Assembly: GCA_963717365.1 (NCBI GenBank)
Contig: OY970327.1
Location: 991,752-1,055,751 of the forward strand
Length of the DNA: 64,000 nt
Reading direction: 5' to 3'
From: Candidatus Saccharimonadia bacterium
GTDB lineage: Bacteria > Patescibacteriota > Saccharimonadia > Saccharimonadales > 2-12-FULL-41-12
Made by a program: the position numbers and the translations under genes. Positions 33,859 to 43,384 of this stretch are shown here, piece after piece. The notes under the pieces were generated by a model that searched no databases, was not told where the DNA came from, and was given only the letters and a program-made list of their open reading frames with translations. Position 1 is the stretch's first letter, and the number at the start of each line of letters is the position of its first letter.

Positions 33859-33944
33859 AAATACTCCATTTAAGTAAGCGGGTAATTAAAAAGCCCGCCG
33901 CTGGGCGATAGCCGGAGCTACCAATAACCGTTTCCAGTTACTAC

Positions 33945-33988
33945 AATCGCGAAAAAGTACCCGAACGACGAGCTGTTCTTTCGCGATT
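33945..33988. repeat. Perfect 10-bp inverted repeat in the recombinase upstream region
   Basis: AATCGCGAAA (33945-33954), 24 nt, then TTTCGCGATT (33979-33988). Confidence 0.8.
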
Positions 33989-34271
33989 GATTTGTTGACC
34001 ATGCCAATGCTTTCACAATGGTTTAGGCCTGAGCTGTTTAACAGCTTGGTTTGAATTATAAAGCACTTGAATTAAAATAAGGTAATACGGAGAAACGTAA
34101 AGACACTCTACTCGGGGAGAACAACTGTTTAGTAGCGGTTAAAGTACCCTAGCCATAGGAGAAAGGCTTAATCTCCCAAACGGAAGAACAGGCAATGCGT
34201 TTAGCACCTAAAGTATCCAACTAATCGCAAAAAGTTGTAGTTTAGGTACTTTTTGTTTTCCGGGGGCTTAG

Positions 34272-34472
34272 GTGTATACGAAATCACCCATTTCAGTTAA
34301 AGAGGCAAGACGGATTCTTGGAATCACTGGTAAGGGGTTATCAGACGATGCAATTAGGCAACTCATAGCACATATTGATGTATTAACAGATGTAGTAATT
34401 ACTCAATATAATGATTCCAAAAACCAGAGTTCTATTGATATTTTAAATGACGAAGCTCATACTAAAGAATAA
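34272..34472 (+). CDS. Small HTH-like protein (possible excisionase/RDF or regulator)
   Basis: 66 aa with a GTG start. SVKEARRILGITGKGLSDDAIRQLI resembles a helix-turn-helix. The stop lies 1 nt before the recombinase ATG. Confidence 0.4.
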   Translation: MYTKSPISVKEARRILGITGKGLSDDAIRQLIAHIDVLTDVVITQYNDSKNQSSIDILNDEAHTKE

Positions 34473-34473
34473 T

Positions 34474-36018
34474 ATGTTTAAAGCTGTAATATATACCCGC
34501 GTATCTACTGACGAACAAGCTAGGAATGGTCTAAGTCTAAAGGGTCAAGAGGACGCCACACGGGATTATTGTCTACGTGAAGGTATAGAGGTTGCTATGG
34601 TATTTTGTGATGCTGGAGAATCTGCAAAGACTGCTAATAGGCCACAATTAATAGCCTCAATGGCGTACTGTACCGAACATTACAAGGAAATTGACTTCTA
34701 TTTGGTGTGGAAGATGGATAGACTCGCTCGTATGGCCTACGACACAGCAGTAATTGATGCTAATTTACAAAAGCTTGGGATTCAGCTTCGTTCAGCTACG
34801 GAGCCAATTACAGATTCTCCTATCGGTTCTCTAACTAAAACCATGTTGGCAGGTTTCGCCCAGTTTGATAATGATGTACGCGCAGAACGTAGTAGTAGTG
34901 GGGTAAAACGGAGAATTGAAGAGGGTGGATGGCCTCATATGGCTCCGTTAGGCTACAGTAATTATACGGATAGTCTTAAGCGGCCAACACTTGTGCAGTC
35001 TAGCCAGGCACCACTTATTACAAGGTGGCTAAAGGAATACTTAAAAGGCGGCTATACGCAAAAGGCTTCAAATCAACTAGCTTGGGATATGGGGATACGC
35101 TCCAAACAGGGCACTCGATTGTCTAATCAGCAAACAATTAATATGCTTCGTAACCCAGTTTATGCAGGTCTGGTAAAATCTAAAATGATTGAATTTCCGG
35201 TTACAGGCCTACACACAGGGTTAATTAGTTACAAAGAACATGAAGCAATAATTAACAAATTGAATAAAAGAAAAAAACAGTTAACTGGGGTCAGTTCTTC
35301 GCAAGATTGGCCATTACGAGGAGGGTTTATAAAATGTGCGGAATGTAAAGAAAATATTACGGGAAGTTCGCCAAAGGGCCGAACAAAACACTACTCTATG
35401 TACCATTGCCCTAAATGCCGCACTAAAACGGTAGGCCATCGCGTGAGCGTATCAAAAGCAACCTTACATAACGAATTTGAAGCTTTATTAGCCTCTGTTA
35501 CGCCATCTGAGGCTGCATTAAAGCTATTTAAATCGCAAGTAATAAAGAAATGGCAGCTTTTAAATAGCGAGAAAAGATTACAGCAGCAGCAAATGCAACT
35601 TACGCTCGAAAAATTAAACCTTAGGAAACAAAAAGTAATTACACTTTTTGTTGATGGTAGCTTATCTTCGGAAGAAAAGGTGGAGCAATCAAATATTATC
35701 CAGTCAGAAATACTTAGAACCGAATTAAAATTAAATGAGGCAAAAGAAGCTGTAATAAGTTCAGATATTCTAATTGACTTCGGTATTAACATGATTCAAA
35801 ACGCTTCAAAACTATGGCGTATATCTAATGCATTAGAACGACAACGCCTACAATTAGCTATTTTTCCCGATGGACTTACATATAACTTTGTATCTGGGTT
35901 TGGAACCATTAAAACTAGTGAAATATATCAGTTAATTAGTCAATCGATATCAATAGATAATCAAAATTCAAGTATGGTGGGGGTGGCTGGAGTTGAACCA
36001 GCTACCAAGTGGTTATGA
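34474..36018 (+). CDS. Large serine recombinase (integrase type)
   Basis: AVIYTRVSTDEQARNGLSLKGQ (catalytic Ser), recombinase domain, Zn ribbon CAECKEN...YHCPKC and a coiled-coil tail. The last 44 nt overlap the tRNA-Met gene. Confidence 0.9.
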   Translation: MFKAVIYTRVSTDEQARNGLSLKGQEDATRDYCLREGIEVAMVFCDAGESAKTANRPQLIASMAYCTEHYKEIDFYLVWKMDRLARMAYDTAVIDANLQKLGIQLRSATEPITDSPIGSLTKTMLAGFAQFDNDVRAERSSSGVKRRIEEGGWPHMAPLGYSNYTDSLKRPTLVQSSQAPLITRWLKEYLKGGYTQKASNQLAWDMGIRSKQGTRLSNQQTINMLRNPVYAGLVKSKMIEFPVTGLHTGLISYKEHEAIINKLNKRKKQLTGVSSSQDWPLRGGFIKCAECKENITGSSPKGRTKHYSMYHCPKCRTKTVGHRVSVSKATLHNEFEALLASVTPSEAALKLFKSQVIKKWQLLNSEKRLQQQQMQLTLEKLNLRKQKVITLFVDGSLSSEEKVEQSNIIQSEILRTELKLNEAKEAVISSDILIDFGINMIQNASKLWRISNALERQRLQLAIFPDGLTYNFVSGFGTIKTSEIYQLISQSISIDNQNSSMVGVAGVEPATKWL

Positions 36019-36050
36019 GCCACCTGCTCTGACCGATGAGCTACACCCCC
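35975..36050 (-). tRNA. tRNA-Met (anticodon CAT; elongator Met versus Ile2 not distinguishable here), CCA encoded
   Basis: Hand-folded cloverleaf: acceptor GGGGGTG/CACCCCC, D arm GCTC-ATCGGTCA-GAGC, anticodon arm GGTGG-CTCATAA-CCACT, variable loop TGGTA, T arm GCTGG-TTCAACT-CCAGC, then A-CCA. Confidence 0.9.
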
Positions 36051-37365: not shown

Positions 37366-38811
37366 ATGAAGGTGCATATCTCTTGGCTGATTGGCTGGGG
37401 CTGCTTGGGTTTTTTGGGCGGAGTAGGTCTGTGCGCCCTGATTAATGCATCATCATTTACAAACCCTATCTGGCTTATCGGCTCAATTATATTCATTGCC
37501 CTGACCATGGTATTTAGGTATCGCTGGTTAATTATACTGGTAGTCTCCGCCGGATGTGTGGCTGGCCTGTGGCGCGGCAGCATACTGCAGTCCGATCTTA
37601 GCGCCTACCAGCCATATTATGGAGCAGTTGTTAAGTTGAGTGGCCGGGTAGCACAAGACGCTTCGCTGGGCTCACAGGGCGATCTCCGGGTGAGTCTTAA
37701 GAATGTATCCATAGCCGGCTCGCCGCTAAAAGGACAAGCCTGGGTAAGTCTGCCAAAGGTAGATGTTAAACGCGGCGACATAATTACCGTTTCTGGCAAG
37801 CTTGGAGAAGGTTTTGGCAGTACCTCGGCTACTATCTACCGAGCAGAGATTATTGAAATTGTGCGTCCAAACCCAGGCGATGTTGCTCGCCGGGTCCGAG
37901 ACTGGTTTGGGGCTGGAGTACGGGCTACGGTGCCGGATCCGCAGGCTAGTTTAGGCCTAGGTTACTTGGTGGGTCAGAAAACTGCCTTGCCAAAGGATTT
38001 AGAAGAAGATATTAAAGCGGTGGGGCTGACACATGTGGTCGTTGCCAGTGGCTACAACCTAACGATACTGGTAGTCTTTTGTCGCCGGCTATTTTTAATG
38101 ATATCTAAGTATATCGCCACAGTTATGAGTACCTTGATGGTATTAGCGTTTATGTTGGTGACAGGCTTTAGCCCATCAATGTCTCGCGCCGGGCTGGTAG
38201 CACTGCTAGGCTTGTTGGTTTGGTACTACGGCCGAACGATACATCCGTTTGTTCTATTGTCATTCGCGGCCGCCCTGACAGTTGGTCTACAGCCATCCTA
38301 TATCTGGGGCGACCTTGGCTGGTATCTCTCATTCACGGCTTTTATTGGAGTTATTGTGTTATCACCGCTAATTCACCACTATTTTTGGGGTACCGCTAAG
38401 CGTCCTGGCATGCTCCGAGAGTTATTCATTAGTACGCTGGCCGCTCAAATTGTGACCACACCGCTAATATTAATGTCCTTTGGCCTATTTTCGGTCTATG
38501 CGCTGTTGGCTAATATCTTAGTTTTGCCACTCGTACCATTAGCCATGCTCTGTACATTTTTTGCCGGAATAGCCGGTCTCATCGCGCCGGGCTTTATTGG
38601 ATTTCTGGCATTTCCGGCTACAGTAATCCTGACTTATTCCACAACAGTCATTCAGTACGTTGCAAATCTGCCGAACGCACAAACCGAGCTCATATTTAAT
38701 CCTCCGTTAATGATCGCCAGTTACATTGGGTTAGGCGTAGCAATTACATATTTAAAAAGGAGAACCAACCATGACTTTCGCGACCCTAATTCTACAAATG
38801 AGACGTACTAG
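37366..38811 (+). CDS. comEC: ComEC/Rec2 DNA-uptake channel, no C-terminal metallo-beta-lactamase domain
   Basis: 481 aa. DUF4131-like N-terminus (VVKLSGRVAQD...GDIITVSGKL) and competence domain (LGLGYLVGQKTALPKDLEEDIKAVGLTHVVVASGYNL). The protein ends after the last TM helices. Confidence 0.85.
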   Translation: MKVHISWLIGWGCLGFLGGVGLCALINASSFTNPIWLIGSIIFIALTMVFRYRWLIILVVSAGCVAGLWRGSILQSDLSAYQPYYGAVVKLSGRVAQDASLGSQGDLRVSLKNVSIAGSPLKGQAWVSLPKVDVKRGDIITVSGKLGEGFGSTSATIYRAEIIEIVRPNPGDVARRVRDWFGAGVRATVPDPQASLGLGYLVGQKTALPKDLEEDIKAVGLTHVVVASGYNLTILVVFCRRLFLMISKYIATVMSTLMVLAFMLVTGFSPSMSRAGLVALLGLLVWYYGRTIHPFVLLSFAAALTVGLQPSYIWGDLGWYLSFTAFIGVIVLSPLIHHYFWGTAKRPGMLRELFISTLAAQIVTTPLILMSFGLFSVYALLANILVLPLVPLAMLCTFFAGIAGLIAPGFIGFLAFPATVILTYSTTVIQYVANLPNAQTELIFNPPLMIASYIGLGVAITYLKRRTNHDFRDPNSTNETY

Positions 38812-40318
38812 TTTAGTAATACTCGCAAGTCTATTACTAATGCCGGGGTCCAGCCAAGCCCTATCAGCGCTAGGTGATACTCTTTCTGCTGCCGTAGTTA
38901 TATACCAGATGCAAACTGGTGCTCCTGCGTCAGCATCTCAGGAATATATAGCCCTTTACAACAATACCGATGCTCCAGTTGATATAACCAACTGGTGTGT
39001 AGTCTATGCTAGCTCCAGTGATATTACCCAGACTCAGCTTAGCTGCGCGAAGCCGTCATCTGATCCGGCCGCACGGATATTCTTAAAACCATACAGTGCG
39101 TGGCTGCTGGCTACGTCGGAGTTTGCCTTGACCCATCCGGCATTTACGCCAGACAGTACGTTTAATGGTGGGTTGGCATCGACGTCAGGGCACATTAAGC
39201 TGCTCGATGCCGGTCAAAAACTTGTTGATTCAGTTGGCTGGGGTTCGGCCATACACCCAGAAGGTTCAGTCGCTATTGCTCCGGCCAGTGGCAAGTTACT
39301 GCAACGGCACGGGCAAATCCCAGAAACGCTCCAGGATTTAAACAATAACGCCGTCGATTTTTATCAAACTGAATTAGTGTTTCCAGTTGGCGGGAATACC
39401 TACGAAGAGATACTATTGCCAGAAACGTGTTCCGCAAATGATAGTACTTGTGCGAGCAATTTGAATTCAAGATTAGTACTGTCAGAACTCCTGCCAGATG
39501 CAACCGGTGCGGATGCTGGCCAGGAGTTCATTGAGCTCTATAACCCCACTGATTCAGCAGTATCGTCGTCAGGTTATTCGCTGCAATTGGGTCCTAGTTT
39601 TGCAAAAAACTATCCTCTACCAGATAGTCTAATTGAAGCTAAGAGCTACCGAGCATTTAGTGATGTTGAAACTGGTCTGACGCTCCCAAATACCAGCGCA
39701 TCTCTCAGACTGGTGGCTCCGGACGGCATTACGTCGAGCGAGACTACCTATAGCGAACTTGAGGAAGCCACCAGCATTGCATACGTTAATGGCAGCTGGC
39801 AGCAAACCTATCAACCAACGCCAGGTACTGAAAATACTTTGGTTGCCGTAAAACCATGTCCAGAAAATCAGACTCGTAATCCAGACAGTGGTCAATGTAA
39901 ACAGAATACCCTCACAGCTAGTCTAGCCGCGTGTAATGAAGGTCAGGTTCGTAATATTGAAACGGGTCGCTGTCGCAATATCGTAAGTACTGTTGCCGCC
40001 ACAGCATGCAAAGCAGGTCAGCAAAAGAACCCGGCCACGAATCGATGCATCAATATTCCGACCGTCGCGGAGACAAAAGCCTGTCCAGCCGGGCAAGAAC
40101 GCAACCCAGAAACTGGCCGCTGCAAAAAGATTTCGGCTATTACCGCATCAGGCAGTAACAGCGTTAAAGATGTCCCCGGTTCACTTATTGGCAGTAGCAA
40201 AACTTGGCTATTGGTTGGCGTAGCAGCGGCAGGAACCATTGGCTACGCGCTATATGAATGGCGTCAGGAGATATTTGGTTTTACGATCTCTCTAAAAAAC
40301 AAACTGGTTCCTAGCTAA
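38771..40318 (+). CDS. Surface protein with two lamin-tail domains, four Cys-loop repeats and a C-terminal TM anchor
   Basis: LTD signatures QEYIALYNNTDAPVDITNW and QEFIELYNPTDSAVSSSGY. The C-terminal helix is WLLVGVAAAGTIGYALY. Overlaps comEC by 41 nt. Confidence 0.75.
   Translation: MTFATLILQMRRTSLVILASLLLMPGSSQALSALGDTLSAAVVIYQMQTGAPASASQEYIALYNNTDAPVDITNWCVVYASSSDITQTQLSCAKPSSDPAARIFLKPYSAWLLATSEFALTHPAFTPDSTFNGGLASTSGHIKLLDAGQKLVDSVGWGSAIHPEGSVAIAPASGKLLQRHGQIPETLQDLNNNAVDFYQTELVFPVGGNTYEEILLPETCSANDSTCASNLNSRLVLSELLPDATGADAGQEFIELYNPTDSAVSSSGYSLQLGPSFAKNYPLPDSLIEAKSYRAFSDVETGLTLPNTSASLRLVAPDGITSSETTYSELEEATSIAYVNGSWQQTYQPTPGTENTLVAVKPCPENQTRNPDSGQCKQNTLTASLAACNEGQVRNIETGRCRNIVSTVAATACKAGQQKNPATNRCINIPTVAETKACPAGQERNPETGRCKKISAITASGSNSVKDVPGSLIGSSKTWLLVGVAAAGTIGYALYEWRQEIFGFTISLKNKLVPS
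39857..40126 (+). repeat. Four tandem 25-aa coding repeats (15-aa Cys loop + 10-aa linker)
   Basis: CPENQTRNPDSGQCK, CNEGQVRNIETGRCR, CKAGQQKNPATNRCI and CPAGQERNPETGRCK, each followed by a linker of about 10 aa. Confidence 0.85.
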
Positions 40319-40333
40319 TTGGTTCTTAATGCT

Positions 40334-40363
40334 TTAGACATATATTTTGCTAACGGTTATAAT
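40334..40363 (+). promoter_or_regulatory. Sigma70-like promoter, leaderless-type spacing to ATG 40373
   Basis: TTAGAC (40334-40339), an 18-nt spacer, then TATAAT (40358-40363). The ATG lies 9 nt downstream. Confidence 0.45.
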
Positions 40364-40372
40364 ATAAACGAA

Positions 40373-40744
40373 ATGAGAAAGGGAAAACAAACAGCTCAAA
40401 TGGATGCCGCACCCCCGGATACTGCTCCGGTCACTGAATCGTATGATGGCGCAGAAGGCATCCGCCAACAACAAGTTGAAAGAGCAGCAGAAGGCATAGC
40501 CGCAATATCACTATTTGCACGTCACGGAGATACGGTTGTGAATATGAGAGGAGTAAGCGGCAAGTTGAAAGATATAGCCAAGTTTTGCCCTAGGGATCTG
40601 AGTGAGGAGCCACCAGAAAAAGTACATAACTGGACCGTAAATATTTTAACGGAATCAGGACACGAATTAAGTGAGGAAGAAAAAATTTTTACTGCACAGC
40701 CAAAGCCTATGGATAATTCCGAAAACGACGAAAAAAAAAATTAG
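40373..40744 (+). CDS. Hypothetical protein; upstream segment of a probable frameshift-joined gene
   Basis: 123 aa from ATG 40373 (the track start 40319 is TTG and overlaps the promoter). It ends ENDEKKN* immediately after the A10 run at 40731-40740. Confidence 0.45.
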   Translation: MRKGKQTAQMDAAPPDTAPVTESYDGAEGIRQQQVERAAEGIAAISLFARHGDTVVNMRGVSGKLKDIAKFCPRDLSEEPPEKVHNWTVNILTESGHELSEEEKIFTAQPKPMDNSENDEKKN

Positions 40745-40917
40745 AAAAACCACCAGAAACTCAAAATTTACAGCAATCTAAAAAACCTGCAAAGACTGAA
40801 ACCAAAGCTTTAATCGCAGAAAAAGCAGCCCAGACTTCTAAAGAAAATCGCTCTAAGCCAATTGCCATAAATCAAGATAGATTAAAACAGGAGCAGCCAC
40901 CTAAGCCCATCAAAGAA

Positions 40918-41838
40918 TTGCGTCATGTTGAGCCAGCAGCCTACTTTGTAAAAGAACAGGCTAAATCGTCGCTGTCTAAAAATACAATAGTGTCAAAAAA
41001 AGAGACTCCGAAAGAAATTAAAAAAAGTCCTGGCTTAGTTATCGAGTACAAGCAAACAGTTGTTCTTAAACCGTACATGACCAATATTCATGAGAATACA
41101 CTACACAGTACCTCAGCTAATTTGATCGCAGAGCCTGTGATAATCGAGTTACCACGCGCGCAGGAGACAACAATAGTGACAGTTCTAAACACACCGGCGA
41201 TAGAAGTAGAACAATCCGAGCGTGAACCTACGATCCCAGAGGATGAAATTATTACTGAAGCCACTGAGACTGATATTCGAACGATGATCCATACAGTACA
41301 AGATAAAATTGCAGAGCTTGATCCGATAGCAACAGAATTAATAGAGCGATTGATAGAAGAGATAGCGACGATATTAGCAGGATATGATGCAACTAATCTA
41401 CTTGCTGAAACTGACAAAAATGATGTAGATACTGTGGAGAACGAAATAGTAACTATAAATGAGCTTGCCAAAGAAGTAGGCGTTATCGCCCCAAAAGATC
41501 CAATAGAAGTATTGGTAGGAGTCCTAATAATGCATACGACTACCGCTGAAGATTTAGAAGAACTCGGATCAAGTGATACGGAACAGAAATTAATAGTAGC
41601 CATCACCCAGATAGCTGAATTGTTAGATATGAAGATAGACTCGCCACAGATAAGAAGGCTGGCGTCCAAATTGATTGAGTCCAAAGAAGTCCGGGGTATG
41701 CTTATTCAAGAATCTCAAGAAGATCGTGGCACGCATGAGGTACTGCAGCATTTTGGCACTGTCCTGAGGGGCGTAGAGGATATTTTAGAGCCCGTGCACG
41801 CGTTATTAGGCCGAATAGTTTTAGCCACGCACATGTAA
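40918..41838 (+). CDS. Acidic hypothetical protein; downstream segment (frame open from 40717, no convincing own start)
   Basis: The track start is TTG 40918 without an SD. The same frame is open back to 40717 and overlaps the A10 run, so a -1 shift from the upstream ORF would read through. Confidence 0.45.
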   Translation: MRHVEPAAYFVKEQAKSSLSKNTIVSKKETPKEIKKSPGLVIEYKQTVVLKPYMTNIHENTLHSTSANLIAEPVIIELPRAQETTIVTVLNTPAIEVEQSEREPTIPEDEIITEATETDIRTMIHTVQDKIAELDPIATELIERLIEEIATILAGYDATNLLAETDKNDVDTVENEIVTINELAKEVGVIAPKDPIEVLVGVLIMHTTTAEDLEELGSSDTEQKLIVAITQIAELLDMKIDSPQIRRLASKLIESKEVRGMLIQESQEDRGTHEVLQHFGTVLRGVEDILEPVHALLGRIVLATHM

Positions 41839-42259: not shown

Positions 42260-43384
42260 TTATGGATTGTTCATAGGGATTGTAACAGTAAATGTGGTGC
42301 CCTTGTTTAATTTTGAGCTAATTGTAATAGTGCCACCATGTAAATCTAGTAGTTTTTTTGCCCAGTATAAACCCAAGCCAGTACCACTGGCGGAAGATTG
42401 CGGGTTATGGATACGCGAAAACTTTTGGAATAAACGGGGAATATCCCGCTCGGCAATACCAATTCCCTGATCTGCAACGGTGATAATTAAATGATCAGTA
42501 GCGCCGCTTACAGAGACAGTTACTTTACTCTTGTCTGGACTATACTTAAGAGCATTGCTGAGTAAGTTCTCAAAGACCATGCGCATGTGCAACGGATCAA
42601 CTGTACAGAGCACCGAAGACTCCTCTGAATTACATGAAAGTGTTAAGCCCCGCTCTTTATATTTTGCTGTATGACTAGCAACAATATCACTGAGAAGTTC
42701 TACGAAATCAATTTCTTTGCGGACCGCGATAATTTTATTGGCATCGGCTTGGGCTACCTTGAGTAGATCATTAATAATATGTAATTGCGTGTCGTTATAG
42801 GTGTAGGCTTTCTGTAGCATTTCAGACTGCTCTTTAGTTAATCTTCCAACATAGCCTTCTATTAGCATGCCCATATACTGTTTAACGACTGTAGCTGGTG
42901 TACGCAACTGATGGGACGCGATTGAAATAAATTCGTCCTTAGCATTTTCTAGCTCAACTTCTTTGGTAATATCACGGAAGACCTCAATAGTACCGAAGGG
43001 CTCACCGTTAAGAATTAAGGGGGAAACAGTCAACGCTACTGGAATTCTATCGCCGTCTTTTTTTCGGTAATAAAGTCGTTCAAATACTGGCTTACCACTC
43101 AGAATTGCCTCGGTAATAGGTCGGTCAATATTTGATATTACACGGCCAGTTTCATCCTCTGCCACAATAGTTTCCGGATACCATTTTCCGACTACCTCTT
43201 TTGCCTTAAAGCCGAGGATGTCGAGTGCAACCGTGTTGATTCGGGCTATATTACCTCGTTCGTCGGTTGTTATAGCACCCTCACCGATGCTAAAAAAAAG
43301 TGCGTCTGCCTCAGCATTTCTAAGTCTTAATGATTGAGAGTCAACATCAGCCGGCAATTTCTGTGAAGTTCTTGCCCGGGCCAT
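42260..43384 (-). CDS. Soluble PAS-domain sensor histidine kinase
   Basis: PAS (FFSIGEGAITTDERGNI...), H-box FISIASHQLRTP, N-box NALKYS, G-boxes DQGIGI and GTGLGL. No TM segment. Confidence 0.85.
   Translation of the reverse strand: MARARTSQKLPADVDSQSLRLRNAEADALFFSIGEGAITTDERGNIARINTVALDILGFKAKEVVGKWYPETIVAEDETGRVISNIDRPITEAILSGKPVFERLYYRKKDGDRIPVALTVSPLILNGEPFGTIEVFRDITKEVELENAKDEFISIASHQLRTPATVVKQYMGMLIEGYVGRLTKEQSEMLQKAYTYNDTQLHIINDLLKVAQADANKIIAVRKEIDFVELLSDIVASHTAKYKERGLTLSCNSEESSVLCTVDPLHMRMVFENLLSNALKYSPDKSKVTVSVSGATDHLIITVADQGIGIAERDIPRLFQKFSRIHNPQSSASGTGLGLYWAKKLLDLHGGTITISSKLNKGTTFTVTIPMNNP

Follow-up and report, generated by a model that had tools for sequence, protein, structure and literature searches.

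Two adjacent open reading frames (ORFs) in the genome of a Candidatus Saccharimonadia bacterium meet at a run of ten A's, and comparison of related sequences indicates that they very probably form a single gene expressed through programmed recoding of some kind. The DNA analyzed here (the window) is a 64,000-nucleotide stretch of contig OY970327.1 in assembly GCA_963717365.1. We favor, with reasonable but limited confidence, a recoding that is mainly transcriptional, in which RNA polymerase slippage would add one non-templated A. From this arrangement we infer the existence of a short and a long protein isoform, and a ratio between them.

The A10 homopolymer occupies positions 40731-40740 of the plus strand and lies precisely at the frame junction of the two ORFs, as the original prediction had it. 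The upstream ORF (40373-40744, plus strand) reads GAA AAA AAA AAT TAG through the tract and ends at a TAG (40742-40744) one codon past it; its product, the putative short isoform, has 123 aa and ends in NDEKKN. The -1 frame is closed by a TAA at 40714-40716 and then stays open from 40717 to 41838, reading FRKRRKKKLEKPPETQNLQQSKKPAKTE... and running into the called 306-aa ORF, which starts at TTG 40918. Since the TAA closes the -1 frame, the shift must fall between 40717 and 40744. Beyond the tract, the -1 frame continues for 365 codons plus a stop (40741-41838), a stretch that includes the called 306-aa ORF (40918-41838). Its first part (40741-40917) lies outside any called ORF and encodes the start of a K/P/E/Q-rich linker (LEKPPETQNLQQSKKPAK...). 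With A11 (or A8) instead of A10, the two frames fuse into one protein of 488 aa, in good agreement with the roughly 490 aa foreseen for one extra A or a -1 slip. The predicted junction peptide would read ...NDEKKKLEKPPETQ... / ...NDEKKKLEKPPETQNLQQSK. The end of the upstream ORF, the limits of the open -1 frame and its continuity with the TTG-initiated ORF had likewise been described correctly.

The tract is the sole homopolymer of at least 9 bases in the window, followed in length by three A8 runs. In dinucleotide shuffles, A9 matches occur 4.3 times per window on average, and a first-order Markov model predicts 2.7 runs of at least 9 bases. The presence of the tract alone is not beyond chance; its position and conservation are. 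To score coding potential we used codon-usage log-likelihoods, with 44 long window ORFs as the training set; the gene mean is 0.249 per codon (sd 0.05). The zero-frame ORF scores 0.304 per codon, and positions 40717-40917 score 0.229 in the -1 frame versus -0.398 in the zero frame. By this measure, the coding signal changes frame exactly at the tract.

Homologues of the two halves are rare, are found only in Saccharimonadales-type contigs, and are annotated throughout as "hypothetical protein" of Candidatus Saccharimonadales or Patescibacteria. A word-indexed protein search with the fused protein matched the window's own 306-aa ORF alone, and a related-locus search with it gave no match in genome, metagenome or viral contigs. 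We also ran the fused protein with phmmer, exhaustively, against 1.84 billion representatives and recovered 12 relatives, none of which spans both halves. Relatives of the N domain are small ORFs of 87-137 aa that end in KKK or KKN followed by 0-7 residues, except for the weakest match, P0012, which has no tract. Relatives of the C domain are likewise encoded on their own, in ORFs 118-534 aa long. Two profile searches extended the set by seven C-type ORFs and by two N-type ORFs that end in KKKF and KKKLS. The seven C-type ORFs lack the N domain, and the starts called for them fall at positions that are not homologous. Searching with a degenerate DNA pattern for RGTHE[IV]L...LEPxHxxLGR gave one genome match, in a Candidatus Saccharimonadales MAG (L014), and no match in JGI metagenome contigs.

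One C-domain relative, the 534-aa protein P0006 (L011), lacks the tract and carries a KMCP motif near its N terminus. We considered it as an in-frame natural fusion and rejected it as such, as its similarity to the N-terminal ORFs is not significant (BLASTP E = 0.93; HMM and shuffle tests). A partial ORF lies 5' of P0006 in the same frame (L011 1-1828), with a single TGA between the two. P0006 may or may not be an in-frame variant of the gene.

We compared the junction DNA in 15 sequences representing 10 lineages, drawn from 11 SRA runs, four NCBI assemblies and the window's genome. In all 10 lineages the N-terminal ORF ends in A9, A10 or A11. The tract is A10 in the window (GAA AAA AAA AAT TAG), in L001 (CAA AAA AAA AAT TAG), in L002 (GAA AAA AAA AAT TAG) and in L014 (CCA AAA AAA AAA CTG AAC TGA), and A11 in L015 (CAA AAA AAA AAA TAA). 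It is A9 in five further lineages (L003/L004, L005/6/7, L008/9/10, L013 and L016), which read NCT AAA AAA AAA. Although tract length and codon phase vary among lineages, the needed shift stays -1: in each of the 10, a long ORF lies in frame +2 (equivalent to -1) and this frame becomes open at the tract or slightly 5' of it. The -1 frame has a stop immediately 5' of the tract, or at most two bases away, in seven lineages, which places the shift within the tract itself. A zero-frame stop follows 0-2 codons past the tract in nine lineages and six codons past it in the remaining one. With an off-frame stop density of 7.7% per codon, this proximity has a chance probability of about 5e-4 when the lineages are collapsed to seven groups; the lineages are partly non-independent, with TTAG after the tract common to three and TTCTAG to two. 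All three Lys codons at the site are AAA in all 10 lineages, against 69% of Lys codons in the window, and none of the four KKK triplets of other genes reads AAA AAA AAA. The proposed ortholog comparison thus found the tract and its -1 relation kept in every lineage, and the outcome that would have spoken against a fusion, an independent gene pair with its own starts and no tract, was not seen: there are two called ORFs, always with a tract.

In the model that we favor, the mRNA would start at or next to ATG 40373, from a promoter-like site at 40335-40363. Standard decoding would yield the 123-aa N-domain protein, stopping at TAG 40742-40744. RNA polymerase would slip on A10 and incorporate one non-templated A in part of the transcripts, and ribosomes on these A11 transcripts would pass KKK-LEKPPETQ... 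into the -1 frame. The resulting long product would comprise 488 aa, with the N domain joined through a disordered K/P/E-rich linker to a helical C domain, and the tract would set the ratio of short to long isoform.

Two sets of observations favor transcription over translation as the slipping step. All 10 tracts are at least 9 nt long, which is 2-4 A's beyond the ribosomal heptamer in every lineage; because seven are enough for a ribosome, this length argues for transcription. Elements that stimulate ribosomal frameshifting are also missing. As originally predicted, no stimulatory hairpin lies downstream of the window tract (z = +0.78). Across the 10 lineages we found no downstream structure at a consistent distance and no SD-like motif at a stimulatory upstream distance (L015 has one AGGA about 21 nt upstream). 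The lack of both kinds of element again favors transcription over ribosomal frameshifting.

The distribution of A runs elsewhere points in the same direction. The sense strands of 45 window ORFs contain 44 A6 runs, 14 A7 runs and none of A8 or longer. Six in-phase A_AAA_AAA heptamers occur in ordinary window ORFs (for example, 40994-41001), two of them in the histidine kinase gene (42260-43384) and one of them inside the downstream ORF itself. Since six heptamers are tolerated and A8 or longer runs are absent, the bare heptamer seems harmless and longer runs seem to be avoided. Outside the junctions, where 5.4 runs of at least 9 are expected, we observed one, an A9 in the L002 linker (P = 0.03, by an analytic estimate over a small sample of about 113 kb of non-redundant DNA). 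Long A runs are also selected against through replication slippage, so this length-threshold argument is not specific to RNA polymerase. Overall, the junction shares three properties with slippage sites: a homopolymer (A9-A11) able to span the RNA-DNA hybrid, for which about 9 nt suffice in many bacteria, conservation of the tract and of the frame relation with coding constraint in the shifted frame, and avoidance of long runs elsewhere in coding sequence, the last in a small sample.

Programmed -1 ribosomal frameshifting on an mRNA with uniform A10, by a slip of P- and A-site AAA AAA on A_AAA_AAA (40732-40738), is an unlikely explanation but one that deserves serious weight. This sequence is a documented slippery heptamer (PMC3711429). 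As the original prediction pointed out for the window, the heptamer is present, and it lies in zero-frame phase there and in all 10 lineages; the needed shift is always -1, and a zero-frame stop always follows within 0-6 codons. Given the in-phase heptamer in every lineage, ribosomal frameshifting fits the frame relation just as well, and a transcriptional +A and a -1 ribosomal slip yield one and the same protein (...DEKKKLEKPPE...). What such a site typically has besides an in-phase X_XXY_YYZ heptamer, namely a hairpin or pseudoknot 5-9 nt downstream or an SD-like element upstream, is missing here: no such structure is conserved, and no lineage has the SD-like element at a stimulatory distance. 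Moreover, the surplus of 2-4 A's, kept everywhere, is needless for a ribosomal slip, and the six in-phase heptamers in ordinary genes show that a bare heptamer is evidently tolerated. Transcriptional slippage and ribosomal frameshifting may also both contribute.

A very improbable explanation is that the locus holds two separate genes, a small Lys-tailed protein and a downstream protein made through its own initiation or through termination-reinitiation. Gene callers and deposited annotations all divide the locus in this way, but in the -1 frame both the coding signal and the conserved peptide start at the tract, 177 nt 5' of the called TTG. The called downstream starts lie at non-homologous positions and use differing codons (TTG, ATG or GTG) by lineage. 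Nor is there a consistent start codon past the tract, where the first -1-frame codon is TTA, ATT, ATA, ACT or AGA. The exclusive use of AAA for the tract's Lys codons, set against the mixed usage in other genes, likewise speaks against two genes.

A sign of selection on the shifted frame comes from L002, in which the gene order is as in the window (LTD protein, N-terminal ORF, long ORF, response regulator, histidine kinase). In a DNA alignment of the two, near-identity is confined to islands, one a 31-nt promoter block and the other the tract plus about 35 nt 3' of it; the body of the N-terminal ORF between them shows near-random identity. The first eight -1-frame codons (24 nt) encode LEKPPETQ in both. 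Within these 24 nt the two sequences differ at five positions, all third positions of -1-frame codons. Read in the -1 frame, each of the five is synonymous; read in either other frame, each is non-synonymous. A loose motif, L-[E/D]-x-x-(P)-E, recurs just 3' of the tract in most lineages.

The body of this gene's N-terminal ORF, by sequence, is hypervariable. Window positions 40373-40730 and L002 positions 2107-2422 are barely alignable (z = 4.8), and we detected no homology of the N-terminal ORFs of L014 (5088-5383) or L015 (352-709) to the window's N domain. L002 has a second A9 (2508-2516), in phase and inside the linker part of its -1 frame (EVKKKEA); slippage may occur there too in this lineage.

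The 5' end of the gene bears on how its translation might start. A promoter-like site (TAGACA-17 nt-TATAAT, 40335-40363, plus strand) matches consensus at 11 of 12 positions, its function being inferred, and only 9 nt separate the end of its TATAAT from ATG 40373. A -10 box this close implies a leaderless or near-leaderless mRNA, and a leaderless start at ATG 40373 is accordingly what the sequence would predict. The 31-nt block over this site is identical in the syntenic L002, and a TATAAT box also lies 7-9 nt 5' of the start codon in L001, L002 and L015. The gene caller's start, TTG 40319 (giving a 141-aa ORF), appears less likely than ATG 40373; the homologues P0003, P0005, P0011 and P0013-P0016 align with the N-terminal ORF from M1. 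TATAAT-like boxes lie 6-10 nt 5' of the start codon in many of the 44 long ORFs, a layout suggesting that many mRNAs of this genome are leaderless. An SD-like motif precedes only 8 of these 44 ORFs. The earlier observation that no SD-preceded start exists downstream of the tract is true, but because SD-like motifs are so rare in this genome, it is weak evidence and says little against a separate downstream gene.

Phase variation, in which replication slippage would toggle the long protein ON (A11/A8) or OFF (A10) in populations, is also highly doubtful. Poly-A tracts are mutable at replication (PMC1088944, PMC3711429), and tract length does differ among lineages, at 9, 10 or 11. However, none of the 15 assembled consensus sequences carries an in-frame ON allele, and the length changes come with codon-phase changes that leave a -1 shift still needed. 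Within each of four lineages, moreover, tract length is the same in two or three independent samples. Lastly, an error of sequencing or assembly in the homopolymer, or a pseudogene produced by a recent inactivating mutation, is scarcely credible: homopolymers are error-prone on some platforms and the window genome is a single 1.19-Mb contig possibly built from long reads, but the independent ERR12037361 assembly has the identical 141-aa/306-aa split with the same 174-nt gap, the -1 state recurs in all ten lineages and more than 12 runs or assemblies, the stop so close behind the tract would be unselected if the frames were truly continuous, and both halves have normal coding statistics. Among the four readings that the original prediction had kept open, programmed frameshifting is the one we choose; a pseudogene and a sequencing error are rejected, and phase variation is disfavored. 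Its preference for slippage over hairpin-stimulated ribosomal frameshifting holds up, while the tract-length variation and sequencing error that it had grouped with slippage are not supported.

Several known systems resemble this arrangement. Insertion sequences of the IS3, IS1 and other families produce OrfA and OrfAB through -1 programmed ribosomal frameshifting at A_AAA_AAG/A or through A-run slippage. Like them, the present locus has a small N-terminal ORF, an A-rich slippery site, a long startless -1 ORF, and short and fused products. It differs from them in that the fused protein has no transposase domain (DDE or other) in Pfam, NCBIfam or PHROGs, the chromosomal locus is syntenic, and no multi-copy distribution was seen. 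We rejected an OrfA/OrfAB identity on the missing transposase family, the syntenic locus and a Foldseek search against the PDB that gave no fold match (best E = 1.3). Escherichia coli dnaX uses -1 programmed ribosomal frameshifting at A_AAA_AAG, stimulated by an SD-like element 5' of the site and a hairpin 3' of it. It resembles the present gene in its Lys-codon slippery heptamer, its -1 direction and its two products, but here both stimulators are absent and 9-11 A's take the place of a heptamer ending in G.

A close parallel is found in tssM genes, where Citrobacter rodentium tssM1 and Yersinia pseudotuberculosis tssM carry an A11 before a premature stop and produce two length variants by transcriptional slippage (Gueguen et al, 2014; PMC4256274). 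In C. rodentium tssM1, stimulators of programmed ribosomal frameshifting are absent, transcripts contain 10-15 A's, and both length variants are required (PMC4256274). As in tssM1, a long poly-A run lies right before the zero-frame stop with no SD-like or structural stimulator nearby, and added A's would append a C-terminal domain, so that one gene would yield both a short and a long form. The proteins are unrelated, however, and slippage has been shown experimentally for tssM1 and is deduced from sequence here. Moreover, the tssM tract is sporadic in an otherwise uninterrupted family, whereas here all members with DNA have it, bar one doubtful case.

In bacteria, the homopolymer length prone to slippage is often nine nucleotides, and transcriptional slippage occurs at T9 in Shigella flexneri mxiE and at A9 in Thermus thermophilus dnaX (Baranov et al, 2005; PMC1088944). 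Our argument from tracts of at least 9 nt and the avoidance of long runs elsewhere follows the same reasoning as that work (PMC1088944). Both mxiE and T. thermophilus dnaX share with the present gene a homopolymer of at least 9 nt. In mxiE, as proposed here, the slip is needed for the longer product and joins two overlapping ORFs; in T. thermophilus dnaX, again as proposed here, there are two products and the stop is close to the run, but slipping gives the shorter product. Neither gene is related to the present one. In reporters, frameshifting climbs with A-run length, from 10% at A7 to 40% at A9 and 63% at A11 (PMC3711429), which makes a substantial long-isoform fraction plausible.

None of 14 members of the protein family matched a family in Pfam, NCBIfam or PHROGs. 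The N domain has a conserved core at residues ~45-110 (40505-40702, plus strand; motif GVTG...CPxDL...WT..IL...G), supported by an alignment, in which G60, C72, P73 and G96 are invariant, and by an AlphaFold model. We modeled the long isoform on a 14-sequence alignment, with a mean pLDDT of 56.5; the N-domain core and parts of the C domain are the only confident regions. The N domain is modeled as a beta-hairpin plus helices over residues ~45-110, with pLDDT of 88-95 over residues 51-100 and of 68 and 83 at the edges of the core. Residues ~118-297, the linker, are disordered in the model. The C-terminal domain, conserved in alignments (residues ~298-488 of the fusion; 41263-41835, plus strand; motifs ELEP, RGTHEVL and LEPxHxLLGRIVL) is modeled as helical, with pLDDT of 83-90 over residues 401-440 and lower values elsewhere in the domain.

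The gene has a fixed syntenic position in the chromosome, between the LTD-protein gene and the response regulator gene. Its upstream neighbors are ComEC and the LTD protein in the window, L002 and L014. The upstream neighbor in L015 has an LTD-type C terminus, the only part of that gene in the sequence, and more distant lineages have DivIC in place of ComEC and LTD. Downstream lies the response regulator and histidine kinase pair.

If the recoding is as we propose, all public records present one gene as two "hypothetical proteins" whose starts are arbitrary, and 177 nt of coding sequence lack annotation; the corrected products would probably be a short protein and a long fused one. Mechanistically this is already well known, and what would be new is the gene family and the bacterial group, an extension with no new principle. 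A cellular, non-mobile gene family would be added to it, one in which the slippery tract is kept in essentially all members found. We found no relevant case of slippage or programmed frameshifting in Saccharibacteria or Patescibacteria in the literature searched, and as far as that literature shows, this would be the first in Patescibacteria (CPR). To our knowledge, gene expression in this group is almost unstudied experimentally. The tolerance of A7 set against the absence of A8 and longer runs, together with the leaderless-like layout, offers a handle on RNA polymerase fidelity and translation initiation in Saccharibacteria. Saccharimonadales are epibiotic bacteria, and we can offer one speculative proposal, to which we give low credence: the tract would be the hinge of a modular system peculiar to Saccharimonadales, with a fast-evolving N module that is both free and linker-tethered to a conserved helical C domain in a ratio governed by RNA polymerase slippage, an organization that would suit a role in host interaction or self/non-self discrimination, beside ComEC and LTD genes that hint at a locus for DNA uptake. 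If this is true, the isoform ratio could respond to transcription conditions such as nucleotide supply.

Three further features lie upstream in the window. As listed, the ComEC-like ORF (37366-38811) shares its last 41 nt (38771-38811) with the LTD-domain ORF (38771-40318), and the true LTD start may lie further downstream than listed. A 523-aa ORF in the region 34447-36050 is placed where the corresponding gene of the ERR12037361 assembly has Resolvase/Recombinase (large serine recombinase) Pfam matches. At its 3' end this ORF overlaps a tRNA-Met gene encoded on the other strand (35975-36050), and the region may represent an element integrated at the tRNA. On the minus strand, positions 33907-34029 match the full LOOT RNA model (Rfam RF03000) with 77.8 bits, against a gathering score of 46.4.
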